A stretch of DNA of 64,000 nt from Candidatus Latescibacterota bacterium (GTDB lineage Bacteria > Latescibacterota > Latescibacteria > Latescibacterales > Latescibacteraceae). The stretch spans positions 937 through 64,936 of the forward strand of contig JAFGMP010000009.1 of assembly GCA_016927495.1 (NCBI GenBank), in the 5' to 3' direction. Within the stretch, counting starts at the first letter, position 1. Each line of letters starts with the position of its first letter. A program made the position numbers and the translations under genes. Below the pieces are notes generated by a model that saw only the letters and a program-made list of their open reading frames with translations, made no database searches and was not told the DNA's origin. Below are positions 2,010 to 45,783 of the stretch, one piece after another.

Positions 2010-5000
2010 ATGATTATATGTCCTCAAAATATTGATTTCAGTGGATTAGCCGGATTATTATCGTCCCCCAATGTATCATCCGGTTCAACGGATACATCTG
2101 ATTTCGCTGCCCTGATTATGAGTATGCTCGGTGGTGACACAAATCCGGATATAAATATATATCCCGTTTTGACAGAACCTGAAGAAATTTCGGGTATTTC
2201 CACTGAACTTATCTCCGGTATCGACTCAACGCAAACCATTGAAGCCAAATGTGTAATCAGTACAAAAGACGGTAAAAAAATAATTATTCCGGTTATGCTG
2301 TTAAATGCCGAAAATATTGAATTTAGCAATATGATTTACGATGCAATAATTGAATCGGTAAATTCGCAATCCGAAAATACCGATACTCAAATTGCCGCTT
2401 CAGATAGTGGTATTGAAAAAGATACCGAAAATGCACCAATGTTCGCCCGCCCGCTTCAGACATCGTATGTTCCCAATAATGATAATGTGAATTTTGGGAA
2501 TGTGAATATTACCGGAGATAGCCTGACAGAAAAAGCTTCAGCCGTTGTTGATAAAGCAGTGTCCGAACAACCAACGGTATCGACAGAAAAGCTATCGGGT
2601 ACAAATGAGCCTGGCGAAACTGAAACCGTTACAGATACAGAAACACTTTCAGATAATAGCGCTGAAGAAATCGTAAAATCACATACATCGTTCAAAACTG
2701 ATGAGTTTACCGGTTTGCCACAAACCGAAATCGCCGGGCAAAACAAAGAAAATATTACTATCCCTGATAATAAAGAAAGCCAAATTCAGCATATCGAAAC
2801 AGAAGATATACAGGTCCCCGTTGACAGTGTAATTGAGAAGTCCGACAGTATTATCCGAAATTTCAGGTTTTCGGAGATATCGGATGAATCGGTTCTGTCA
2901 AATACGACCGGTGATGAACAATCGACTCAAGTCACTTTGAAAATTATCGGGGCATCGGATGATAATACTTCGACCGATCAAATATTTTATGTCCAAAATA
3001 AAACAGATAATATGAGCACAGAACAAAAAAGAATCAACATAAAGATCAATGGCTTACTTCAGGAAACGACTCAACAGCCGTTATCGATAATCAGGATCAG
3101 CACATCTTCCGGAGAAATACCGATAATATTGAACTTGCCCGATTCTTCCGGCCAAAATATCTCTGCCGCTGATCTGATAAATGATCTGATTACCGCAGGA
3201 GCAGATGTCGAACTGGTTTTGGACACGATCAGGACAAGCGTGAATACCGAAATTTTGCCGGTTGGCAGAAATACCGATGCTGACGGGAATGTACAGCTTT
3301 TCGAGAATAACGGTTTTTCTACAAAAACAAACCGAACCATATTTATTATTCCCGATGCCATAAACCATGATACTGTGCAAACCTCCGGGTTTCAACCAAA
3401 TACCGGAATTATTCGAAATATCTCAGACACACAAGAGATACGCAATACGGATACTGAAAACACTGGTCAACAAATACAGCATAATGAACAGAAAGTTTCG
3501 GATCAGAACGGTTTAATTGTCTCAGCGGGAAAAACAAGTTACTCAGAGGAACAAGTTGATGAGGAAATTTTACATATTGAAAAAGTAACACCTGATGTTA
3601 ATGTTGATAATGTTTCTCAAAATCGGCAATCGGGGGGAGTTGGCGCGGGTTCAAATCCGACCGACGAACAACGCACCTTCACACGCACCCCAGTAAAGCC
3701 CCCCGATGCCGTTATTAAAGCTCCCGAATCCATACCTATATCGGTGGCCGGGGAAACGGAAACGCTAACCGTTGAGAACACAACATCGGAGGTACAATAT
3801 GCTACCGTAGTGAGTGCGAACCAACCCGAAAAGCCTTTGAGTGTAAGTACAATCGCCGATGATAGTACTCGTGAAATATTGGTAAAGGAAAACATATCAA
3901 TTAAAATTTCAAGTACTATCATACCTGAAACATTCCAAAAATCGACCGCGACATTTTCTAAAATCGATAGTATTGAAAAAAACATGGATTCGGACATAAT
4001 ACCTGATAAGTCAACAGGTGAAGAAATTTCGGTTACTGGAAAAAATGATATGCCGGTTACCGATGCTACACCCACTTTTGAAATGTCGGGTAAAGTGACC
4101 GGAACAGTTGTTTCACGGTTCATCCGTACAGGTTCGGAACACAAATTTCTTGAATCGGGCGAGGAGATAAAAGTCAATGAGCAGATTCAAACTTCACCCG
4201 CATCATCAGTTGTTTCTTCCGGTTCAATTGAAAAAAACGCAGATTTCAATACAACGATGGAAGTAAAGAATATAGAAACGGAAACTCTACAGGTTAAACA
4301 TAACGGCGATACTTCGGTTCAGCAGGGAAACCAAAAAATACAATGGAATGAATCTGTTTCATCCGAAAGTTTTGTACGTCCGAATGATAGTGAAGTAAAA
4401 TCCGGATATGAAAAACCTGTAGTGAGTAAGGCAACGGATGGAGAAAATGTACGACCAGTATTTACTGAGAGACAATCGGAAACGGATGCGAAAATATCTG
4501 TCGACAAACCGACTGACAGTATCAAAAAAACAGCTCATCCCTCATTTACTGTGAATACAGACATACCTGAATATACAGAAAAATCCGAACAAACGGAACA
4601 ACATGACACAAACACATTCACTACCGTAAAGGATTCGGTAAAATCCGGAATTTCTGATATAGCGGGAACCGATCCGTCACCGGGAAACACAATTAATATC
4701 ACTGGCAACGATTCCGAGGACAGCGGAATTACATCTCATCAAAAAGATATGAAAACCGAAGGTGATAAGGATGCGACAATACAATCAAAAACATTTAACG
4801 ATGCGCCTTCGGAGTCTGAAGAAATTAATCCGGAACCTGCGAAGAAAAATGATTCTCAGGTTAAGGCAGCGCATATAACGGAACAAAGAAAACATGACAT
4901 GTCTTCATCTCGGCCAGAGAAAATTACGGTTGTATCGGATAATAAATCAGGTACGGTTAATGCGGTAACTCGATCAGTTGAATCTACTTCAGATAGCGAT

Positions 5001-17650: not shown

Positions 17651-19711
17651 TTGGCGGAAGCAGCTCTGGAGAACAGACGGGCGGTTCATTTTTCCGATGC
17701 CATACTTGCCGTTCTGGTAATTTCGATTCTCGGAGTAATTATACTTCCCGTTCCTCCGGCATTATTGGATATTTTAATCAGTTTCAACATTGTTTTCTCC
17801 ATAATAATCCTCCTTGTAACCATGTATATTACCCGTCCGCTCGAGTTATCCGTTTTTCCGGGTCTTCTTCTCATTGCGACGGTGTTCCGGCTCGCTCTAA
17901 ATGTAGCCAGTACACGTATTATACTCGCTACAGCAACTGCCGGGACTGTTATTCCGGCATTTGGCACCTTTGTTGTACAAAGTAATTATGTAGTCGGATT
18001 CATCATTTTTGTCATCATTATTGTCATTCAGTTCGTCGTTATCACACGTGGAGCCAGCCGTATTGCAGAAGTTGCGGCACGTTTTACACTCGATGCGATG
18101 CCGGGGAAACAGATGGCGATAGATGCCGATTTAAATGCCGGACTGGTGAATGAGGATGAAGCGCGCAGACGGCGCTCGGAAATCAGCCGTGAGGCCGATT
18201 TTTACGGCGCTATGGATGGCGCTTCCAAATTCGTGCGTGGTGATGTTATTGCCGGTTTGATAATCACGGCGATCAACATCATAGGAGGTTTTATTATCGG
18301 CAGATTTCAGCAGGGAATGGGGTGGATGGAATCACTTCAAACTTACACCATGCTTACGGTAGGTGATGGCCTGGTAACTCAGATTCCGGCTCTTTTCATG
18401 TCGACTGCAGCGGGTATGCTGGTTACTCGTGCCACATCGGAGTCAAACCTCGGGCAGGATCTCCGTGACCAGATATCGAAAAAACCGATAGCTATTATGA
18501 TATCGGCTGTAATGATTGCTGCATTCGGTATTATACCCGGTCTGCCTACAAAACCGTTTTTACTTCTCGCTGTTGCCACCGGAGGATATGCCGCTTTTCT
18601 GCTCAGAAAAAGCGCTGAGGAAGATCGTATTCGGATTGAAAAAGAAGCAAAGCCTCCGGAAGAACCTCCTGAACGTATCGAGGATTATCTGTCTGTCGAT
18701 CTTCTTGGAATAGAAATCGGTTACGGGCTTATACCTATTGTCGATGAGAAACAGGGCGGTGATTTTCTCGATCGTGTAACTACATTGAGACGGCAGATTG
18801 CGCAGGATATGGGTATTATTGTGCCCCCGGTCAGGATACGTGACAATATTAAGCTCAATTCAAATGATTATATCATTCTTATCAGGGGTAACATCGTTAC
18901 AAAAGGTAAACTTGAACCTAACATGTTTCTTGCGATGAATCCGGGCTTTATCGAGGAAGAGATTGATGGAATAGATACTATTGAGCCTGCATTCGGGCTG
19001 AGCGCCAAATGGATTTCCGCGCAGAATCGTGAAAAAGCCGAACTGAGCGGATATACAGTTGTCGAGTCATCGAGTGTTCTTGCCACGCACCTGTCCGAAA
19101 CGATCAAGAAAAGCGCACATGAAATTATTTCCCGACAGGATGTGAAAACTCTGGTAGATAACATAAAACATGATTACCCTGTTCTAATAGATGATCTGAT
19201 TCCCCAGTCCTTGAATCTTGGAACGCTTCAGAAAATTCTACAGCATCTTCTTAAGGAACGGATTCCGATACGAGATCTTGTTACTATCCTTGAAGCAATC
19301 GGAGATTATGCGGCAACAACGAAAGATGCAAATACTCTTGGTGAATTTGCGCGAGCGGCTCTTTACAGAACCATTACAAAAATGTATATTGATGATAGCG
19401 GCAAACTGACGGTGTTTACCATTGCGCCCAAAGTCGAACGTTTGATTCTGGAAAATATGAAGACAACGCCGCAGGGTATAATGGTAAATATACCGCCTGA
19501 TGTCAGTGAAAAAATATTACACAGCACGAACAAATTGATAGATCAGATGGTTAAGAATGATCAGCAGCCGGTTGCATTGACTTCATCCAGTATCAGGCTG
19601 GCGTTCAAGACTATAACTGAAATCAGTTTCCCGAATCTCGGTGTTGTATCATACAACGAGGTTGCACCTGAAGTCGAAATTTATTCTGTCGGAATGGTGA
19701 AAATAGACTGA
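17651..19711 (+). CDS. flhA: Flagellar export apparatus protein FlhA
   Basis: 686-aa protein with an FHIPEP motif region (MPGKQMAIDADLNAGLV) and TTG start. It overlaps the flhF start by 1 nt. Confidence 0.9.
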   Translation: MAEAALENRRAVHFSDAILAVLVISILGVIILPVPPALLDILISFNIVFSIIILLVTMYITRPLELSVFPGLLLIATVFRLALNVASTRIILATATAGTVIPAFGTFVVQSNYVVGFIIFVIIIVIQFVVITRGASRIAEVAARFTLDAMPGKQMAIDADLNAGLVNEDEARRRRSEISREADFYGAMDGASKFVRGDVIAGLIITAINIIGGFIIGRFQQGMGWMESLQTYTMLTVGDGLVTQIPALFMSTAAGMLVTRATSESNLGQDLRDQISKKPIAIMISAVMIAAFGIIPGLPTKPFLLLAVATGGYAAFLLRKSAEEDRIRIEKEAKPPEEPPERIEDYLSVDLLGIEIGYGLIPIVDEKQGGDFLDRVTTLRRQIAQDMGIIVPPVRIRDNIKLNSNDYIILIRGNIVTKGKLEPNMFLAMNPGFIEEEIDGIDTIEPAFGLSAKWISAQNREKAELSGYTVVESSSVLATHLSETIKKSAHEIISRQDVKTLVDNIKHDYPVLIDDLIPQSLNLGTLQKILQHLLKERIPIRDLVTILEAIGDYAATTKDANTLGEFARAALYRTITKMYIDDSGKLTVFTIAPKVERLILENMKTTPQGIMVNIPPDVSEKILHSTNKLIDQMVKNDQQPVALTSSSIRLAFKTITEISFPNLGVVSYNEVAPEVEIYSVGMVKID

Positions 19712-20820
19712 TGATAATTAAAAAATACACTGCACCAACTCTTGCCCAGGCGCTATCGAATGTTCGTGAGGAACTGGGTACGGATGCGATAATTCTTAAT
19801 ACACGAAATGTTAAAAAGGGTGGTGTTTTGCATCTGCTCGGCAGTTCCGTTTATGAAGTAACTGCTGCGATCGATGATAAACCAACAGGTGAAAGTACTA
19901 TGGATTTACAAACGGGTGCGAGAGATTTGAGTTACCGTGTTCAGGTAGATTATCTAATCGATGATATTAAAGAACTCAAAATGTCGATCAGGGATCTTGC
20001 CGATTCTGCCCTTACAGGTGAAATGGATGGATTGCCGGTACAGCTTGCAGCTTTATTAAAACGGCTTCAGGATACCGGAATGGATGAGAAAATCGCCAAA
20101 AGACTGACACGGCAACTCCTTAACGAACTGGATGGCCGTGAACTAAGCGATCCAAAAATAATCGGCAAACGGGCCACAGAAATTCTTCTTGCAGGCATGG
20201 GAGATGTAAAACCGATTCCTTCCGGCGGTACAAAACCGCGGATTATTGCTTTCGTTGGTCCTACAGGTTCCGGGAAAACAACAACCATAGCCAAGCTTGC
20301 CACCGAAATATCTCTCAATATGGATAAAAAAGTGGCAGTGCTCAATATCGATACAAAACGGGTTGATGCGGTAGGACAACTGAAGGCATATTGCAGAATA
20401 ATTAACATTCCGCTTTATGTAGCATACAGTCCGGATGAAATTCCCGGAATTATGCCGGGAATAATGGAAAACGATATTACGCTTGTGGATACTCCGGGCG
20501 CCGGACCGATGGACAGAACGCAAATGATTGAAATGGTGGAATTCCTCCATAAGCTTGTGCCGCAGGAGGTTCATCTTACCCTGAGCGTTACGACGTCTTT
20601 TATGGAAATGAAACGTATTTTTAATAATTTCGGCGTTATGAAACCAAACCGTATTTTATTTACGAAACTCGATGAGACAGATAGTTACGGCACAATGATT
20701 TCATTTGCGCTGGTGGCAAAAGAGAAATTGTCCTATGTGACATTCGGTCAGAATGTGCCGGGGGATTTTGATATTGCAAATCCGGGAAAAATCATAAGAG
20801 ATACCCTGGCGCTTAAATAA
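19711..20820 (+). CDS. flhF: Flagellar biosynthesis GTPase FlhF (SRP-like)
   Basis: SRP54-type GTPase motifs (IIAFVGPTGSGKTTTIAKLA, DTPG). Confidence 0.85.
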   Translation: MIIKKYTAPTLAQALSNVREELGTDAIILNTRNVKKGGVLHLLGSSVYEVTAAIDDKPTGESTMDLQTGARDLSYRVQVDYLIDDIKELKMSIRDLADSALTGEMDGLPVQLAALLKRLQDTGMDEKIAKRLTRQLLNELDGRELSDPKIIGKRATEILLAGMGDVKPIPSGGTKPRIIAFVGPTGSGKTTTIAKLATEISLNMDKKVAVLNIDTKRVDAVGQLKAYCRIINIPLYVAYSPDEIPGIMPGIMENDITLVDTPGAGPMDRTQMIEMVEFLHKLVPQEVHLTLSVTTSFMEMKRIFNNFGVMKPNRILFTKLDETDSYGTMISFALVAKEKLSYVTFGQNVPGDFDIANPGKIIRDTLALK

Positions 20821-20861: not shown

Positions 20862-21668
20862 ATGGCATTGCAAAATAATTTAGATATTAAACACATCAAA
20901 GCGAAAGTATATGCGATTACCAGCGGGAAAGGTGGAGTCGGTAAAACATCACTTGCGGTGAATCTCTCGATTATTCTATCGAAAGCGGGAATGCGGGTGC
21001 TTTTGATAGATGCCGATATGGGGCTGGCTAATGTCGATCTAATGACAGGTGTAATGGCTCCTCATACAATCGAAGAGGTTATCAACGGGAAAGCGAGTAT
21101 TTTTGATGCGCTGGTCGAAGGCCCCGAAGGGTTAACCATATTGCCGGCGAGTTCCGGAGTGGGGCATATCCTCGAAGTCGGCATGGAGAGTGAAGCACAG
21201 TTTCTGAAGGAACTTCTTAAGCTTGAACATGCTTTCGACATAATCTTTATCGATACCGGCGCCGGTATATCCGCAAATGTAATCGATTTTGTCTTCATGG
21301 CCAAAGAGGTTATCGTTATTATGACTCCCGAACCTACCGCTTTTGCTGATGCATATGCCATGGTGAAACTTGTGGCAACGCAAAAACCGGATATGATAAT
21401 CAGTATTGTCGTAAATATTGTCAAAACAGAGGGTGAGGGGACACACATATTTACCAAATTCAATGAAATTGTAGAACGATTTTTAGGGAGAAGCGTTATT
21501 TTCAGGGGATCGATATTTTCCGATGCTGCAGTTTCGCAGGCGGTAATGCGCCAGATTCCGTTGGCGGTGTATGCAGGATCGTCTCCGGCAGTACAATCGA
21601 TGAAAAATATTGCAAAAAATGTGCTGGGTTTAAAAACTGCTAAAAAAAGAACCATCTTCAACCGATAA
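20862..21668 (+). CDS. flhG: MinD-like ATPase FlhG (FleN/YlxH)
   Basis: Deviant Walker A (ITSGKGGVGKTS) and ParA/MinD fold, directly after flhF. Confidence 0.85.
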   Translation: MALQNNLDIKHIKAKVYAITSGKGGVGKTSLAVNLSIILSKAGMRVLLIDADMGLANVDLMTGVMAPHTIEEVINGKASIFDALVEGPEGLTILPASSGVGHILEVGMESEAQFLKELLKLEHAFDIIFIDTGAGISANVIDFVFMAKEVIVIMTPEPTAFADAYAMVKLVATQKPDMIISIVVNIVKTEGEGTHIFTKFNEIVERFLGRSVIFRGSIFSDAAVSQAVMRQIPLAVYAGSSPAVQSMKNIAKNVLGLKTAKKRTIFNR

Positions 21669-21680
21669 ATAGAGTAGAGT

Positions 21681-22550
21681 ATGATGGAAAAACGCAGAGA
21701 TACTGGTGAGAGAAGAATTACCGGCGACCGCAGAAACATATTTGATCGCAGGAGCCACACCGATCGCAGAGCATCGGATGACCGTAGAAATCAAAACGAT
21801 TCGAAAGGCCTGTCAACATATCAAAAGATGTCTGTTGACAAAAAACGTGACGAGATGGTCAAAAACCATCTCAATCTGGTTAATTTCGTTGTTGCACGGT
21901 TATCGATCAGTCTGCCAAACTGGTTAGACAAACGTGATTTGATCAATGCTGGAGTAATAGGACTTATTGATGCGGTTAATCATTATGATCCATCAAAGGG
22001 AGTCAAATTTGAGACCTATGCATCAACCCGTATCAGAGGTGCAATTATCGACGAGTTACGCTCCCTTGATTGGATTCCACGATCGACACGGACGAAATCC
22101 AGGGAGATCGAATCTGCAATTTCGGGTCTGATTCATAAACTGGGACATATCCCAAGTGACGAAGAAGTATCAAAAGAACTTGGATGGGATATTGATAAGT
22201 ATCATAAGGCACTTGAACAGGTATCGGGTACGACACTGTTATCGCTGGATGAATTAATAACGACATCATCGGGAAGCGAACCGGTAAAAAGACTCGATAC
22301 GGTTTCAGGCGATGATGAAAACACTCTCGATACCATAGAGCGCCGTGAACTTGTAGAGAATGTTGTCATAATTCTCGGCACTCTTTCCGAACAGGAAAAA
22401 CTCGCTATTGCACTTTATTATTATGAGGAATTGACACTTAAAGAAATCGGTTTGGTTCTGGAAGTATCGGAATCAAGGGTGTCGCAGATTCATACTGCGG
22501 CAATTTTAAAATTGAGAGCTAAATTGAGGTCGTTGTATTCCGGCTCTTAA
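21681..22550 (+). CDS. fliA: Flagellar sigma factor FliA (sigma-28) with arginine/aspartate-rich N-terminal repeat extension
   Basis: Sigma-70 region 2/3/4 motifs (NLVNFVVARLS..., YYYEELTLKEIGLVLEVSESRVSQIH). Size and position after flhG fit FliA. The N-terminal roughly 45 aa carry DRR-type repeats. Confidence 0.85.
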   Translation: MMEKRRDTGERRITGDRRNIFDRRSHTDRRASDDRRNQNDSKGLSTYQKMSVDKKRDEMVKNHLNLVNFVVARLSISLPNWLDKRDLINAGVIGLIDAVNHYDPSKGVKFETYASTRIRGAIIDELRSLDWIPRSTRTKSREIESAISGLIHKLGHIPSDEEVSKELGWDIDKYHKALEQVSGTTLLSLDELITTSSGSEPVKRLDTVSGDDENTLDTIERRELVENVVIILGTLSEQEKLAIALYYYEELTLKEIGLVLEVSESRVSQIHTAAILKLRAKLRSLYSGS

Positions 22551-22912
22551 TGGGAGATTTACTCATGGTTCGGCCGATAGAACTTACGGATTCACTTTCA
22601 AAGGTCCAGGCTGTCGAGCAAATGCAGCAGGATGCAAAAACTCGTCCCGAAGCATTACATCAATTTCAGAAAACGCTTACTGACAAACAGACTGAACAGT
22701 TGAGAACTTCACCGAATCCGGTGCCTGAAAGCGACCAGGTTGTTATCCATGTTAATGAGCAGGAAAAAGATAAGCATAAAACTGCGGAAGATGAACGTGA
22801 TAGCAAAATGCACAGGGATGGTGAAAAACAAGATCCGAAAGAGAACGGACAAAACGCAAGCAGAAAAAAAGACGGTCATACTTCCCCTGGCCATATTGAC
22901 ATAAAAGCCTGA
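22550..22912 (+). CDS. Hypothetical acidic/basic low-complexity protein, translationally coupled to fliA (TAATGG overlap)
   Basis: 120-aa ORF whose ATG overlaps the fliA stop. No recognisable domain. The C-terminal half is K/E/D-rich and low complexity. Confidence 0.4.
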   Translation: MGDLLMVRPIELTDSLSKVQAVEQMQQDAKTRPEALHQFQKTLTDKQTEQLRTSPNPVPESDQVVIHVNEQEKDKHKTAEDERDSKMHRDGEKQDPKENGQNASRKKDGHTSPGHIDIKA

Positions 22913-23248
22913 TTCGACCTCTTAATCCGGCGGTTATTTTCTCCCGGAATATTTATATCATATTGCATGTTAGTCTGGTACGATATTGGTGCGGTATTTT
23001 GAATGATAATAGAGGGGCTTATGCTCCTTGTTTCAATAATATTTCATTAAAACAATGTATTTTTTTAAAAAAAATTTCGGAACAAAATGATGAATCGGTA
23101 AGCGATGACGGTAATTTACGATCGGTTGCCGGTATATATGAAACGGATAAGGTTATTCTGGAAATTATGACATGCAAATAACAAATTTTTATATGGTTTG
23201 TTATTGATATTTTCTCGATTTTGATAGAAGTATTTCCTGTAAAACAGG

Positions 23249-24868
23249 ATGTGTTCTGTGCGAATAAATCCTCAAAAAATTGCCGAAAACCTTATGATAA
23301 AACAAGTTGAAACAAAAACTGTTACAACTGGAGATTCGGCAAATTCTGTCGAAATAAAAAATATTGGTGAGACTTTGTCCGGCCGATTATTGTCGCTGTT
23401 TGACACAAAAGGCGGTAATGTACCTCGCTCGACAATTCTCGACATTGCATCGAAACTTGCGGCTTTGGATATGAAACCCTCTGATGTTGATGGTGATATC
23501 GCGCTGAAAGCGCTTTTGCTACAACATAATAATATTCCCCTGAGTCGGGAGTTACTTCTGGACAGCTTTGAGAGCGATCCGGCGGTTTTCACAAAATTGA
23601 ACACTCTTGTCGATAGTGTACTCACTGCGTTGAGTGATTCGAGAGTAACCGGTGAGATAAGGACAACGCTTGGTATATTCATTAAAAATCTTGACTCATT
23701 ATTCAGGCCTGAGTCGATGCAGGAAGCTGTCCGAAATACTTTGACCGATCATGTATCGGAATGGTCCCGCTCAATTGAGTTGAAAATTCTTTCACTTCTG
23801 TTAAATAATCCTGAAGCAATTCGAGCCGCACCGATGGAACATGTATCCTCTGCCGAAGTGATGCTTATGCTCTCGGATGCTGCGCAGAAAAATCCTCAGA
23901 TAGACGTATTGATGGAAAAGCTTGGTGACATAACCGGTAAATTATTATCACGGTTATATGAACTCAATCCGGGAACTGATGAATTTAATGTCGGTATCAG
24001 ACAGGCAGTTGCCGTATTATCCAAACATCTGACGGATCTTATCCCGGATATTAACGCAATTTTACAAAACTCGGGTAATCCGATCCTTTCTGATGATGTT
24101 TTAGCCGTTTTTTTCAGTGAACACATACAGTTATTGGAGGAAAAACTGCTCAGCGCACTTGAATCCGTATCTTCGAAAAGCGTGATGAGTGGATCAGTAA
24201 TACGGAGTGAGGTAAATATACCGTTGCACAAAATGTTGAGAAACAGCGGTATGTCGTTTGAATGGCAATTACTGGCATGGTATCGTTCGGGTAAAAATCC
24301 GGAAAGACTTCGCGAGCTTATGCAGCGTGATATTAAGGGCATTCTCGATAAGTTTATGACCGATCTGAACTTATATAGAAAAAAAAGCTCCGGCAAAAGT
24401 ATATTAAAAAACCTCGAACGTGAAGCAAAATCTGTGCTTGACTGTATTACTCAGCGTCAGATTTCCAATATTCTGCAGGATCGTGGAACCGGTGGGAAAG
24501 TATATTTCGAACTGCCGCTCGGCAATCTCCGCGATAAAGATAATGCACGGGTAACTGCAGAAGGTGGTCAAAAATCAGAAGAAAATGGGTTAAATCCGGA
24601 AAATTTCAATCTTTCGTTCGATGTCGAGACTACCGGACTGGGACGATTGTATGTTACTATGAATGTACAGAAAAAAAACATTTCACTCGAGTTTTTAGTG
24701 AGGGATGATAATGTTATCACTCAGGCGCATACAATTGAACATGAGCTTGTCGACTCATTGTTTTCACGGGGATTTTCCGTTAATTCGTTAAGTTTTGATG
24801 TAATCAGAGATAACATCGCGTTCAATAAGAATAAATCGAATAGACGCAGTATGGATATAAAGGGATGA
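23249..24868 (+). CDS. Second FliK-like protein (Flg_hook C-terminal domain)
   Basis: The C-terminus (NFNLSFDVETTGLGRLYVTMNVQKKNISLEFLVRDDNVITQAHTIEHELVDSLFSRGFSV) resembles the FliK/Flg_hook domain. It is paired with an FlhB-CTD-like gene, as in Firmicutes FliK-like/YlqH pairs. The start is uncertain, possibly MIKQVETK at 23294. Confidence 0.55.
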   Translation: MCSVRINPQKIAENLMIKQVETKTVTTGDSANSVEIKNIGETLSGRLLSLFDTKGGNVPRSTILDIASKLAALDMKPSDVDGDIALKALLLQHNNIPLSRELLLDSFESDPAVFTKLNTLVDSVLTALSDSRVTGEIRTTLGIFIKNLDSLFRPESMQEAVRNTLTDHVSEWSRSIELKILSLLLNNPEAIRAAPMEHVSSAEVMLMLSDAAQKNPQIDVLMEKLGDITGKLLSRLYELNPGTDEFNVGIRQAVAVLSKHLTDLIPDINAILQNSGNPILSDDVLAVFFSEHIQLLEEKLLSALESVSSKSVMSGSVIRSEVNIPLHKMLRNSGMSFEWQLLAWYRSGKNPERLRELMQRDIKGILDKFMTDLNLYRKKSSGKSILKNLEREAKSVLDCITQRQISNILQDRGTGGKVYFELPLGNLRDKDNARVTAEGGQKSEENGLNPENFNLSFDVETTGLGRLYVTMNVQKKNISLEFLVRDDNVITQAHTIEHELVDSLFSRGFSVNSLSFDVIRDNIAFNKNKSNRRSMDIKG

Positions 24869-25167
24869 ATAAGAGGCAATCTAAAAAAAATATCGAGGGA
24901 CGAAAAGCCGCTGCAGCTCTTCGTTACAAAATGGATGAAGATGTTGCTCCGAAACTTGTAGCTAAAGGAACAGGTAGAATTGCAGAAAAGATAATCGAAA
25001 CTGCCAGGGAAGCAGGAGTACCTATTTATGAAGATCCGGATCTTATTGCTCTTCTTTTGACTTTGAACATAGGAGAATTTATTCCACCGGAACTGTACAT
25101 TTCTATTGCGGAAGTACTGGCTTTTATATACCGTTTAAACAAGAAATCGTTTGAATCTGTTTATTAG
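24865..25167 (+). CDS. FlhB C-terminal-domain-like protein (YlqH-like)
   Basis: 100-aa protein (KLVAKGTGRIAEKIIETAREAGVPIYEDPDLIALLLTLNIGEFIPPELYISIAEVLAFIY) resembling the soluble C-terminal domain of FlhB/YscU but lacking NPTH. It overlaps the upstream gene by 4 nt. Confidence 0.7.
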   Translation: MNKRQSKKNIEGRKAAAALRYKMDEDVAPKLVAKGTGRIAEKIIETAREAGVPIYEDPDLIALLLTLNIGEFIPPELYISIAEVLAFIYRLNKKSFESVY

Positions 25168-25187: not shown

Positions 25188-26024
25188 ATGGCTGATTCTT
25201 CGGAAATAATCAAGAACATGCGAGTTCTCTTTGACATAAGCGCCCTTATTCGTACCGACACTAAACTCGAACTGAAGTTTGAACAGGTATTGGAGAAAGT
25301 GAAGGATGCCGCTTGCTGTCAATCGGTAAGTCTTTTTATAGCTGATGACAGCGGAAAACTTGAGGAAATCGCGACAATCGGAACACCGGTAGAACTCATT
25401 AAAACAATTGATTTTGACATGGGAAGCGGATTTAGCGCCTGGGTTGCAAAACAGCGGAAATCGGTGTTAATACCCAATCTCAGAGAAAGCAGGCATAAAC
25501 ATTTCAGGTCATTCGTCTCAACCCCTCTGATTTCCAATGACCGTCTGATAGGTGTTATGAATCTAGGACATGAAGAACCGGATGCTTTTACCGAAGAAAA
25601 TCTGCAACTCTTCGAAATAATTGCTGAACAGCTTGCACTGATGATTGAGCGAACTAATTATGAACAGGAACTGATAAAGAAAAATGAAGCGCTTGTTGAG
25701 GCTCAGGATGAAATTAAAAAACAGAATAAACAAATTATTGAAATGGAAAAATTTCATGTTATGGCACAAATGGCGGCCTCTGTCAACCATGAAATCAACA
25801 ACCCTTTAACATCGGTGATAGGAAATGTTGAACTAATACTTATGTCACGGCAGGATTTGGACGATATTGTCAGGAAAAAGCTAACGGTTGTTCTTGAAGA
25901 AGCGCACCGTATCGGGAAAATTACACAGAAACTGCGTGATATGAAACGGATTGTTGTAGAAGATTACCTGAAGAAAACGGAAGAAAAGATGATCGACCTC
26001 GACTCTTCAAGTTCATTAGATTAA
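25188..26024 (+). CDS. GAF domain plus HisKA (DHp) protein lacking an ATPase (HATPase_c) domain
   Basis: N-terminal GAF-like region (SVSLFIADDSGKLEEIATIG...LIGVMNLGHEE), a coiled coil, then an H-box (MAQMAASVNHEINNPLTSVIGNVELIL). The ORF ends about 60 aa later with no G1/G2 boxes. A terminator follows, so no downstream ATPase ORF exists. Confidence 0.7.
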   Translation: MADSSEIIKNMRVLFDISALIRTDTKLELKFEQVLEKVKDAACCQSVSLFIADDSGKLEEIATIGTPVELIKTIDFDMGSGFSAWVAKQRKSVLIPNLRESRHKHFRSFVSTPLISNDRLIGVMNLGHEEPDAFTEENLQLFEIIAEQLALMIERTNYEQELIKKNEALVEAQDEIKKQNKQIIEMEKFHVMAQMAASVNHEINNPLTSVIGNVELILMSRQDLDDIVRKKLTVVLEEAHRIGKITQKLRDMKRIVVEDYLKKTEEKMIDLDSSSSLD

Positions 26025-39129: not shown

Positions 39130-39327
39130 TGAAAAATCCTTATTAAATTTTTAATTTGCTCTTGTAAACCTTAAAGTTATATTATAAACAATATGGAACC
39201 AAACGGCAACAATTCTTTCATTCCTTTACGGGCTAAATATCAATTTCTTATACCTGAATCATACAATATCAAAAAATCGGCATATAAAATACACTTAGTT
39301 GCTTTTTCAAAAGTATGGAGGATTATC

Positions 39328-39591
39328 ATGCTTGTTCTGTCACGGAAAGCAGGGCAGAAAATTCATATAGGTTCGGATATACTGATCACAATTATCGATG
39401 TATCGGGGAAATTCGTAAAAATCGGAATAAACGCACCGGAATCGATTAATGTTTTGCGGAGTGAGATAAAAGAGATGATTGAAAGGGAAAACAAACTTGC
39501 GGCAAAACAAAGCAGCTATATTTATAATTTGAGTAAATTCGGTAATATTTTTTTAAAAAACAAAGACATGCAAAAAAATAAAAAAACATAA
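39328..39591 (+). CDS. csrA: Carbon storage regulator CsrA (with about 30-aa C-terminal extension)
   Basis: MLVLSRKAGQKIHIGSDILITIIDVSGKFVKIGINAPESINVLRSEI is near-identical in pattern to CsrA. GGAGG RBS at 39317. The ORF-track start at 39193 is too far upstream. Confidence 0.9.
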   Translation: MLVLSRKAGQKIHIGSDILITIIDVSGKFVKIGINAPESINVLRSEIKEMIERENKLAAKQSSYIYNLSKFGNIFLKNKDMQKNKKT

Positions 39592-39739: not shown

Positions 39740-39766
39740 TAAAGTTTCTGCGTTCTTAACCGATAA
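39740..39766 (+). promoter_or_regulatory. Sigma-28 promoter TAAAGTTT-N11-aCCGATAA driving fliC, with a leader of about 200 nt
   Basis: TAAAGTTT at 39740-39747 and ACCGATAA at 39759-39766. Spacing is exactly the consensus. Confidence 0.75.
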
Positions 39767-39971: not shown

Positions 39972-40793
39972 ATGAGTTTAAGAATTAATCATAATATTTC
40001 AGCGATGAATACTCATCGCCAATTGCTTCAGACAGACAGGAAGCTGTCTAACTCGCTCGAAAGGTTATCGAGTGGTTTAAGAATTAACCGTGCGGCAGAT
40101 GACAGTGCCGGTCTTGCAATCTCACAAAGGCTGAGATCGCAGGTTGAAGGTCTTCAGATGGCATCGCAGAATGCCGAACAGGCAAAAAATGTTGTACAGA
40201 CTGCCGAAGGTTATCTTAACGAAATTCACAATATGCTCGGCCGTATGCGTGAGCTGGCAGTTCAGTCTTCATCCGATACCGTCGACAATACAAACCGTGC
40301 ATCTCTGCATGCAGAGTTTTCTTCTCTTCGTGAAGAAATCACGCGTATTGCCAACGCTGCGGAGTACAATAACCAAAAACTGCTCGATGGCTCATTTAAC
40401 GGCACATTTCAGATCGGCGCCAACAACACAACGAATGATGTGATATCATTCACTATCGCAGGTGTGGATGATTCAACTCTTTCAATCGATGCTTCCGACA
40501 TCTCAACCCGTGCCGGCGCAAATACCGCTCTTGACGAATTAACGGCGGCAATTGATGCTGTTTCCACTACCCGTTCCGATTTGGGTACAATTCAGAACAG
40601 GTTGGCATTTACCGTGGCAAGTGTTGACAATGCTTCGGAAAACCTTGCAAGTTCAGAGTCGACAATTAGAGACCTTGATATCTCTAACGAGGTCACTGAG
40701 TTCACAAAATCTCAGATTCTGACTCAGGCCGGTATGTCGATGTTGGCACAGGCAAATGCAGTGCCTCAGAATGTGCTTGCACTCTTCAGGTAA
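39972..40793 (+). CDS. fliC: Flagellin (minimal, 273 aa, D0/D1 only)
   Basis: N-terminus MSLRINHNISAMNTHRQLLQTDRKLSNSLERLSSGLRINRAADDSAGLAISQRL and C-terminus TQAGMSMLAQANAVPQNVLALFR are flagellin N/C domains. Confidence 0.95.
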   Translation: MSLRINHNISAMNTHRQLLQTDRKLSNSLERLSSGLRINRAADDSAGLAISQRLRSQVEGLQMASQNAEQAKNVVQTAEGYLNEIHNMLGRMRELAVQSSSDTVDNTNRASLHAEFSSLREEITRIANAAEYNNQKLLDGSFNGTFQIGANNTTNDVISFTIAGVDDSTLSIDASDISTRAGANTALDELTAAIDAVSTTRSDLGTIQNRLAFTVASVDNASENLASSESTIRDLDISNEVTEFTKSQILTQAGMSMLAQANAVPQNVLALFR

Positions 40794-44325: not shown

Positions 44326-44352
44326 TAAAGTTTGATAAAAACATGCCGATAA
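44326..44352 (+). promoter_or_regulatory. Sigma-28 promoter, perfect consensus TAAAGTTT-N11-GCCGATAA, upstream of fliS-fliT-like-flgM-like
   Basis: TAAAGTTT at 44326-44333 and GCCGATAA at 44345-44352, immediately after the fliD stop. Confidence 0.8.
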
Positions 44353-44454: not shown

Positions 44455-44886
44455 ATGAATAGTGGTTATGCCGCTTATAGGGAAGCTCAGGCTCAGGAAG
44501 TTGATCAGGCAAAACTGATTCTTATGATGTTTTCCGGATCGGTGAATTATTTGAATAAAGCAATTGAATACGCTGAGACTGATCATAAAGAAATGGAACG
44601 ATATATTTCCAGGACAAAGAATATTATTCTTGAACTTATAGCATCATTGAATCTTGAAGACAGCGGAGAAATAGGTGAGTTACTCCTGAAAACATACAGA
44701 GGATTATTTACAAAATTAAATTTGGCATATGTCGAAGAAGATATTGTGAAAGTGACTGACGTGAGAGACTCTCTTATCATGCTTGAAGATTCATGGAAAA
44801 AGGTTTTTCAGAGCCCTGAATACGATCATTTTAAAAACAACAGGGAGCAGTTCGTAAAAAATCAGCAGAAATTGAGAAAGGCATAA
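44455..44886 (+). CDS. fliS: Flagellar export chaperone FliS
   Basis: AAYREAQAQEVDQAKLILMMFSGSVNYLNKAIEYAETDHKEMERYISRTKNIILELIASL matches the FliS four-helix bundle family. Confidence 0.85.
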   Translation: MNSGYAAYREAQAQEVDQAKLILMMFSGSVNYLNKAIEYAETDHKEMERYISRTKNIILELIASLNLEDSGEIGELLLKTYRGLFTKLNLAYVEEDIVKVTDVRDSLIMLEDSWKKVFQSPEYDHFKNNREQFVKNQQKLRKA

Positions 44887-45321: not shown

Positions 45322-45783
45322 ATGAAAATACAAGGTTTACCTCTTAATGACGGCGGTCTGCAGCGGGTTGAAAATAAAAAGGCAGAAAAAATTACCGCCG
45401 GGAATACCCAAAAAGGTGATGTGGTGGAATTGTCACGATCCGTTCGGGGTGGCGATCATGAAATCAGTTCGCACTATGCAATACCCATAGAATTTCTCGA
45501 ACGTACAGAACTGGTTAATGCCATAACTAAAAATATTGCGGATAAGTCATATAATCAACCTGATGTTCAGGTAACAATTGCCGAAAAAATCCTTGAGTCT
45601 GCTGTTTTGAACGATACAATTAGCAGTATCACTGTGGAAAAGAACGGGACACCTGAAATACGTGATGATATAATTAACCGCATAACCGACAAAGTTTCAC
45701 AAAAGTATTATGATCAACCGGAAGTTATGGAGCAGATAGCCGGAAGGATCATTGATGCTTTAGGCGTTTCCGGAGTGCTCTGA
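45322..45783 (+). CDS. flgM: Putative anti-sigma-28 factor FlgM with duplicated C-terminal module
   Basis: N-terminal MKIQ...GDVVELSR and C-terminal R-x-ELVNAITKNIADKSYNQPDVQVTIAEKILE resemble FlgM. The C-terminal module occurs a second time (RDDIINRITDKVSQKYYDQPEVMEQIAGRIIDAL). The gene is expressed from a sigma-28 promoter. Confidence 0.5.
   Translation: MKIQGLPLNDGGLQRVENKKAEKITAGNTQKGDVVELSRSVRGGDHEISSHYAIPIEFLERTELVNAITKNIADKSYNQPDVQVTIAEKILESAVLNDTISSITVEKNGTPEIRDDIINRITDKVSQKYYDQPEVMEQIAGRIIDALGVSGVL

Follow-up and report, generated by a model that had tools for sequence, protein, structure and literature searches.

We have analysed the region around fliA, the gene for sigma-28, in a 64-kb stretch of DNA (hereafter the window; 42% G+C) from a metagenome-assembled genome (MAG) of Candidatus Latescibacteria (WS3), an uncultured phylum. 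Sigma-28 is among the best-understood alternative sigma factors, and its known control is exerted via FlgM or, in the case of WhiG, via RsiG. Judged from its sequence, the window fliA encodes an otherwise canonical sigma-28, which carries a lineage-specific N-terminal tail built of six (D/E)RRxxx units, and the gene is closely followed by that of a 115-aa orphan protein. Both the tail and the fliA-linked orphan family appear to be undescribed. Our preferred explanation of the locus as a whole, to which we assign a probability of about one half, has two parts: the array would be a selected feature acting as an electrostatic tether, and the small protein would be an independent sigma-28-associated factor. 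An earlier note on this DNA had drawn attention to both features. The elements on which the argument depends are the following.

20862..21668, + strand: flhG, MinD/ParA-type ATPase (Pfam AAA_31, CbiA, ParA); same arrangement in the related loci L001, L002 and L003.
21684..22550, + strand: fliA, sigma-28 of the FliA/WhiG family, 288 aa (TIGR02479; Pfam regions 2, 3 and 4); the ATG at 21681 adds one Met.
21690..21797, + strand: (D/E)RRxxx array of six in-register units (KRRDTG ERRITG DRRNIF DRRSHT DRRASD DRRNQN), predicted to be disordered.
21855..22529, + strand: conserved sigma-2/sigma-3/sigma-4 core of FliA (TIGR02479 aa 59-283 in the 289-aa reading; AlphaFold2 predicted local distance difference test, pLDDT, 75-93).
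22552..22557, + strand: Shine–Dalgarno sequence GGGAGA of the small open reading frame (ORF), 8 nt 5′ of its ATG, as read from the sequence.
22565..22912, + strand: orphan small protein, 115 aa (MVRPIE...GHIDIKA), adjoining fliA; 135 homologue clusters; AlphaFold2 pLDDT 61.

FliA and sigma-28 promoters

The FliA protein, identical to NCBI MBN1290290.1, is assigned to the FliA/WhiG family by TIGR02479, which matches aa 59-283 with 260.6 bits (cutoff 189.6), and Pfam places sigma-70 region 2 at aa 59-131, region 3 at 140-194 and region 4 at 232-280. The closest solved structure is that of WhiG (6PFV, E 8e-59). Scored against the enterobacterial sigma-28 consensus, two promoters on the + strand are exact matches of the form TAAAGTTT-N11-(G/A)CCGATAA, one at 39740-39766, 5′ of the flagellin gene at 39972, and the other at 44326-44352, 5′ of fliS at 44455. 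Written as TAAAGTTT-N12-CCGATAA, both sites agree with the TAAA-N15-GCCGATAA pattern of cognate promoters ahead of late flagellar genes. With two exact consensus promoters in the window, the promoter specificity of this distant phylum therefore seems entirely canonical.

A candidate sigma-28-like element, TAAA-N16-ACCGATAA, is located at 21641-21668 (+) in the 3′ end of flhG, with 16 nt separating it from the fliA ATG, and is also present in L001-L003. It could represent an autoregulatory sigma-28 promoter producing a nearly leaderless fliA mRNA, which is uncertain, and it could equally be mere coding sequence of the FlhG C-terminus (...FNR*).

Start codon and translation of the FliA extension

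The N-terminus of FliA reads M(M)EKRRDTGERRITGDRRNIFDRRSHTDRRASDDRRNQND. Translation most likely starts at the second ATG, at 21684, because the first one (21681) is missing in the closest relative L001, which reads CCTAATGG at this position, and because most gene calls agree on a protein of 288 aa; the NCBI call is 289 aa. The flhG stop codon lies 15 nt 5′ of this start (13-16 nt in L001-L003), and there is therefore no space for a leader.

An alternative internal start near 21800 had been considered in the earlier note. Orthologues have L, I, F or V in place of the internal methionine in question, Met49 (nt 21828), and no Shine–Dalgarno sequence is present 5-10 nt ahead of 21828, so that a start at this codon was rejected on both counts. 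Three residues ahead of Met49, Y46 is nearly invariant in orthologues, and the residues between the repeats and the core are likewise conserved.

The codon pattern also points to selection at the protein level. In a comparison with L001, an 88%-identical orthologue sharing five D-R-R triplets, 9 of the 15 D-R-R codons are identical, 5 have changed synonymously (AGA to CGT, AGA to AGG and GAC to GAT are among the changes) and one substitutes D for E, while 11 of the 15 spacer codons have undergone non-synonymous changes. The overall dN/dS against L001 amounts to 0.41 for the tail and ~0.05 for the core. The more distant orthologues L002 and L008 show a complete mixture of Arg codons. What has been conserved is therefore the motif in the peptide rather than the 'gatcgcag' DNA, whose iterations correspond to GAY-CGC-AGR codons for D-R-R. 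Selection thus appears to act on the D/E-R-R amino acids rather than on the DNA, with the three spacer residues free to drift.

The same repeat DNA had been suggested to form a regulatory leader structure. This proposal had to be abandoned: Tandem Repeats Finder returned no DNA repeat (0 rows), the RNA fold of 21660-21830 is ordinary when set against shuffled sequence (z = −0.97), a scan of the whole window gave no Rfam match, conservation at the nucleotide level is absent and there is no room for a leader. The extension itself, put at about 45 residues in the earlier note, is very probably real, translated and selected, in view of the conserved residues linking it to the core, the nearly invariant Y46 and the codon pattern relative to L001.

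Anatomy and evolution of the repeat array

The tail contains six RR pairs at an exact spacing of six residues (nt 21690-21797), where five or six DRR-type repeats had originally been counted. When the 41-aa N-terminus was shuffled 1,000,000 times with its composition preserved, six in-register RR pairs never arose; the maximum was five, seen 6 times. A six-frame translation of the 64-kb window yielded no other RR cluster of this kind, and in an array scan covering the window and ~78 kb of other loci, FliA was the sole carrier within Latescibacterota DNA.

Across 247 units from FliA orthologues the RR pairs are invariant and the residue preceding them is acidic in 83% of cases (D in 133, E in 72). 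The RR-to-RR interval is six in 142 of 192. The three residues after RR are variable, the last one often being D, G, E or N, and position 6 is D in 53 of the 247 units. In a neighbour-joining tree of the FliA core, proteins with 4-7 units, including the window FliA, fall in one clade (P0001-P0038); one independent 7-unit case, P0050, is found elsewhere in the tree, and the remaining Latescibacterota FliAs possess 0-3 units. No RR units are present in the outgroup FliAs (Zixibacteria-like and others), and the solved FliA and WhiG proteins align only from aa 40-58 of the window protein, in keeping with the view that sigma-28 proteins normally lack such an extension. Within the arrays of one FliA sub-clade we observed a 12-residue variant unit, D-(I/V/L)-P-V-E-x-(D/E)-R-R, carried by P0012, P0020, P0027-P0037 and P0042 at N-terminal aa 10-25.

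The tail is predicted to be intrinsically disordered. In the AlphaFold2 model of FliA (60-sequence alignment) aa 1-40 have a pLDDT below 50 and no secondary structure, while the core is confidently helical. With 12 R, 2 K, 7 D and 2 E among its 41 residues, the tail is a modestly positive mixed-charge region with a net charge of about +5. By composition and disorder it fits the arginine-rich mixed-charge disordered regions, which are a functional class and not a homology family.

DRR arrays in other proteins

A six-unit profile compared with 1.84 billion representative proteins detected 32 proteins at E <= 1e-3, a number that is surely an underestimate since the HMMER composition (bias) filter penalises arrays and the profile is short. 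Most of them are proteins of 58-124 residues that contain little beyond (D/E)RRxxx arrays; other carriers have a SpoIIE/PP2C phosphatase, WD40 or TPR domains, or a pseudouridine-synthase-like body. Since the same type of array is found in unrelated proteins, it appears to behave as a portable low-complexity module. The 'hydrophobic-P-V-x-x-(D/E)RR' variant unit occurs in 15 FliA tails and in 3 of the 32 unrelated array proteins (P0248, P0253 and P0262), where shuffles give 0.16, a finding that speaks for a shared module rather than for compositional bias alone. Pfam and NCBIfam contain no model for the array, and a literature search found no paper on bacterial DRR or arginine hexapeptide repeats.

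The genomic context of stand-alone arrays was informative in one case out of five, the other four being on contigs of less than 2 kb. In this locus, L011 (Deltaproteobacteria MAG JAFGGA010000054.1), a gene at 3066-3365 encodes a 99-aa protein consisting almost solely of (D/E)RRxxx units. It sits between the genes for a PEP-CTERM protein and for a 340-aa sigma-54 activator that has no receiver domain, and the locus is one for exopolysaccharide export. This context hints at a link between DRR arrays and transcription regulators.

The small protein encoded downstream of fliA

According to the earlier note, fliA is translationally coupled to a 120-aa ORF whose ATG overlaps the fliA stop codon. The TAATG overlap is physically there, at 22548-22552, but the conserved start of the small ORF is at 22565 and its product measures 115 aa. 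In L001 the ATG of the overlap is out of frame, and L002 and L003 lack it. Because it is not a conserved start, the overlap is incidental; the 120-aa reading from 22550 was rejected, and the proposed coupling through TAATG has to be given up with it. All listed homologues have a length and alignment fitting a MVRPIE start, and ~53 aligned sequences show MVRPIE directly, a few longer calls excepted. Read from 22565, the ORF begins 14 nt after the fliA stop and has no overlap with fliA. Equivalents of its Shine–Dalgarno sequence are GGGGGAA in L001, CGGAGA in L002 and GGCGG in L003. The product is 100% identical to MBN1290291.1 (JXB48_00505).

The ORF is conserved in relatives and tied to fliA. 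Its family comprises at least 135 clusters, all called hypothetical and none with a Pfam domain, and the small protein starts 12-21 nt after fliA in all nine loci with upstream sequence. In L003, L004, L005 and L007 the preceding FliA is repeat-less. The same is true of L010, a MAG labelled Ignavibacteria, where a 96-aa homologue that keeps MVRPIE and the C-terminal IDIKA follows a repeat-less Zixibacteria-like FliA. The small protein is older and more widespread than the repeat array.

The protein is laid out as an N-terminal helical region, an acidic disordered middle part and an invariant C-terminal HIDIK motif. The positions that are invariant, or nearly so, are M1, V2, R3, P4, I5, E6, D9, K13, R19, Q21, Q22, E29, K36, K41, P52, D57, H62 and the terminal H-I-D. 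The protein is neutral up to residue 48 and acidic in the remainder, with a net charge of −9.4 as the family mean and −3 for the window copy. AlphaFold2 predicts helices at 7-26, 28-48 and 65-74 and disorder elsewhere, at low confidence (pLDDT 61, predicted template modelling score, pTM, 0.24). Foldseek against the PDB gave 0 hits and a PDB profile search only a chance match at E 0.35; NCBIfam contained no significant match for the 115-aa protein.

Two known types of anti-sigma factor were considered. The FlgM profile PF04316 matched none of 53 family members even at E <= 1, and hhalign against a FlgM-like ORF in the window gave a probability of 0.09; the small protein was accordingly rejected as a FlgM. 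The c-di-GMP motif of RsiG, E-x3-S-x2-R-x3-[Q/H]-x3-D, is carried on a coiled-coil helix (PMC8325347). This motif is present in 0 of 120 small-protein homologues, and membership in the RsiG-like c-di-GMP-dependent anti-sigma factors was rejected as well. For the antiparallel hairpin of the RsiG type, the comparison involves the two predicted helices 7-26 and 28-48, at the low model confidence given above and with no Foldseek hit in the PDB.

The FlgM-like ORF just mentioned, ORF153 (JXB48_00635, 45322-45783, +), encodes a hypothetical protein of 153 aa and is the third gene of the fliS operon, behind the exact sigma-28 promoter. It has a sub-threshold PF04316 match (E 0.04, aa 61-92) and an internal duplication of a '...I(T/S)K...Y(N/D)QP(D/E)V...IA..I' segment. 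It is a weak candidate for a divergent, duplicated FlgM, and as such it lowers, without removing, the need for the 115-aa protein as an anti-sigma factor.

An electrostatic pairing between the acidic tail of the small protein and the DRR array is unsupported: in 39 contig-matched pairs the acidity of the small protein shows no correlation with how many RR units the neighbouring FliA has (Spearman 0.22, p = 0.18), and the small protein also follows repeat-less FliAs. From this lack of co-variation we take the small protein and the array to be independent features. The earlier note regarded the ORF as a candidate co-regulator or anti-sigma partner. Since the linkage to fliA is tight across phylum-level divergence, our best guess is that the protein is most likely a sigma-28-associated factor, that is a stabiliser, an anti-sigma factor or an assembly checkpoint factor, a putative role suggested by gene adjacency. 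It would be co-transcribed with fliA and would work independently of the repeat array. The MVRPIE...HIDIK protein represents a concrete candidate for a new sigma-28 partner in phyla of the FCB group.

Possible role of the tail and alternative explanations

By analogy with other arginine-rich disordered regions, we tentatively suggest that the array acts as a multivalent arginine-based electrostatic tether. Such a tether would bind a polyanion or an acidic surface, be it promoter-flanking DNA, nascent RNA or an acidic protein, and its binding would tune the activity, local concentration or stability of the sigma-28 holoenzyme. The number of repeats would in this way serve as an evolvable dial. 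With a conserved, periodic and disordered tail based on arginine, sigma-28 would possess a regulatory handle of a different kind, tunable by evolution through repeat number. Sigma-28 would also be a tractable carrier for learning what the DRR repeat does, a repeat type that is found in many small environmental proteins.

A number of points weigh against the combination of a tether and an independent sigma-28-associated factor. Any particular ligand of the tail would be hypothetical. The acidic residue before each RR is unexpected for plain nucleic-acid binding and could mean recognition of a specific partner or ligand, and the tail has a net charge of no more than about +5. Many FliAs of the Latescibacterota make do with 0-2 units; the array must therefore be dispensable for core sigma-28 function. 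Given the limits set by the bias filter and the short profile, the true distribution of the module is poorly known, and an informative genomic context is available for only one stand-alone array protein. As for the small protein, no relation to either FlgM or RsiG could be detected, the pLDDT of 61 makes its predicted structure a low-confidence model, and adjacency by itself is no proof that it binds FliA.

Among the alternatives, the one that survives best, unlikely as we think it is, holds that the array is a neutral low-complexity expansion, generated by replication slippage of a GAY-CGN-AGR unit and tolerated on a disordered N-terminus. Copy number indeed varies from 0 to 7 among orthologues, and the tail evolves with the higher dN/dS (0.41, core 0.05). 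Furthermore, the window and L001 share a CGC-AGA bias though CGC is the rarest Arg codon (9%), which suggests a fairly recent duplication of units. However, RR is invariant and the acidic residue is kept despite synonymous changes, in orthologues down to ~62% identity, while the spacers are free. A whole clade keeps 4-7 units, and the D/E-R-R register recurs in unrelated proteins. Even if the tail were neutral, the analysis corrects two start codons and removes one proposed RNA leader.

In a bolder reading, which we regard as quite unlikely, (D/E)RRxxx arrays would constitute an unrecognised and widespread bacterial regulatory module for a defined polyanion or partner. The module would occur as free-standing proteins in genomes of the Deltaproteobacteria type, once beside the receiver-less sigma-54 activator of L011, and in fusions with signalling domains. 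One Latescibacterota clade would have fused this module to sigma-28, next to a new fliA-linked regulator unrelated to FlgM and RsiG, the MVRPIE...HIDIK family. If true, the fusion would provide a new input into the control of late flagellar genes.

It seems improbable that the array is a specific receiver for a small anionic ligand (c-di-GMP, (p)ppGpp or polyphosphate) or for a dedicated partner, gating sigma-28 in a manner comparable to the RsiG-WhiG switch and possibly with the downstream small protein as the partner. The Asp and the two Arg of each unit resemble the residue types of c-di-GMP sites, and WhiG, the closest solved relative of FliA, is known from the RsiG-(c-di-GMP)2-WhiG complex (PMC8325347). 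The predicted helical N-terminal part of the small protein and the presence of arrays on signalling-type proteins, e.g. the SpoIIE/PP2C phosphatase, could be accommodated as well. On the other hand, the RsiG motif is missing from all 120 small-protein homologues, the small protein also adjoins repeat-less FliAs and its acidity does not follow repeat number (rho 0.22, n=39). An I-site-like RxxD is found in only about one fifth of the units, those with D at position 6.

Even less probably, the tail could be a turnover or export signal, i.e. a Lon/Clp-type degron or a flagellar type III secretion signal that couples the level of sigma-28 to the state of assembly. The tail is disordered, N-terminal and arginine-rich, and, as is well established, proteases act on FliA in enterobacteria and FlgM is exported. 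However, neither degrons nor flagellar type III secretion signals are normally periodic arrays of variable copy number, and the same arrays occur in proteins unrelated to flagella. Finally, an annotation artefact, with the true start at Met49 and the repeat DNA as a leader or regulatory element, has as its sole point in favour the typical FliA length of 240-260 aa and is effectively refuted by the unconserved Met49 behind a conserved Y46, the missing Shine–Dalgarno sequence, the codon-level selection on the protein, the ordinary fold, the lack of a DNA tandem repeat and the flhG stop 15 nt ahead of 21684.

The surrounding flagellar cluster

fliA is part of a long flagellar cluster, whose gene order, from flhA-flhF-flhG-fliA through the fliK-like gene, flgFGAHI, flgJ and flgN to flgKL, is shared with L001 and L002. 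The genes on either side of those listed above are:

17651-19711: flhA.
19711-20820: flhF.
23249-24868, + strand: FliK-like gene with a weak Flg_hook match at the C-terminus.
24865-25167, + strand: FlhB C-terminal-domain-only protein, 100 aa, in a 4-nt overlap with the FliK-like gene.
25188-26024, + strand: GAF + HisKA protein, between the FlhB-C-terminal-like gene and flgF.

Then follow flgF, flgG, flgA, flgH, flgI, flgJ (rod-binding domain), flgN, flgK, flgL and fliW and, farther along the window, csrA, the flagellin gene, flaG, fliD and fliS. Both L001 and L002, as well as a 127-kb JGI contig, keep the FliK-like gene and its FlhB-C-terminal-only neighbour as a pair. The Latescibacterota flagellar clusters L001 (10704-11540) and L002 (8911-9768) also encode the GAF + HisKA protein, in which no HATPase domain was detected. 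Between the small ORF and the fliK-like gene there is a gap of 336 nt (22913-23248), which contains only a 72-aa TTG ORF and is without an Rfam match; the corresponding gap measures 70-115 nt in L002 and the JGI contig and carries two inserted genes in L001. The longest-ORF reading of csrA, 39193-39591 (+), gives 132 aa, with the CsrA domain confined to aa 46-97. Probably this reading begins at the wrong start codon; otherwise CsrA bears an N-terminal extension.

Comparison with known systems

The window FliA shares with its relatives of the FliA/WhiG family (E. coli FliA, 6PMI; Aquifex FliA, 1RP3; Streptomyces WhiG, 6PFV) the sigma-2/3/4 core, the flhA-flhF-flhG context and promoters of the TAAAGTTT-N11-GCCGATAA type. 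It differs from them in the tail: solved and model FliAs have 10-35 residues ahead of region 2, and none of them carries a periodic (D/E)RRxxx array.

Like FlgM and RsiG, the 115-aa protein is small, for the most part disordered or helical, and encoded in the context of flagellar or sigma-factor genes. However, the conserved part of FlgM is C-terminal, while that of the small protein is N-terminal with the addition of the terminal HIDIK. The position of the small ORF, directly 3′ of the sigma-28 gene, is that of swrB in Bacillus, as the earlier note had remarked; in Bacillus subtilis swrB is the gene after sigD. SwrB is a larger, membrane-anchored protein, a general description from which the soluble, acidic protein of 115 aa is set apart.

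For the tail, the closest parallel is perhaps offered by the termination factor Rho. Lineage-specific insertions in Rho are rich in Arg, Asp, Asn and Gly; they confer a higher affinity for RNA in M. tuberculosis and M. luteus, and in B. thetaiotaomicron they drive a functional phase separation (PMC11347177, PMC13269538, PMC10284900). Like FliA, Rho is a conserved transcription factor in which some lineages, the FCB group included, have gained an R/D-rich disordered region of variable length. The insertions or extensions of Rho follow no strict hexapeptide register, whereas the register of the FliA array is exact and its carrier is a sigma factor. Moreover, roles in nucleic-acid affinity or condensation have been proposed or shown for Rho, while such a role of the FliA tail is putative. 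If the tail does act as a tether, it would broaden the recent finding that disordered regions specific to certain lineages provide bacterial transcription factors, for example Rho, with additional functions.

A second parallel is provided by the arginine-enriched domains of mixed charge (R-MCDs) of eukaryotes, which are regions targeting proteins to nuclear bodies (PMC9324279). Like the FliA tail, R-MCDs consist mostly of Arg and Asp/Glu, are disordered and have a repetitive charge pattern, a likeness that is compositional only and implies no homology.

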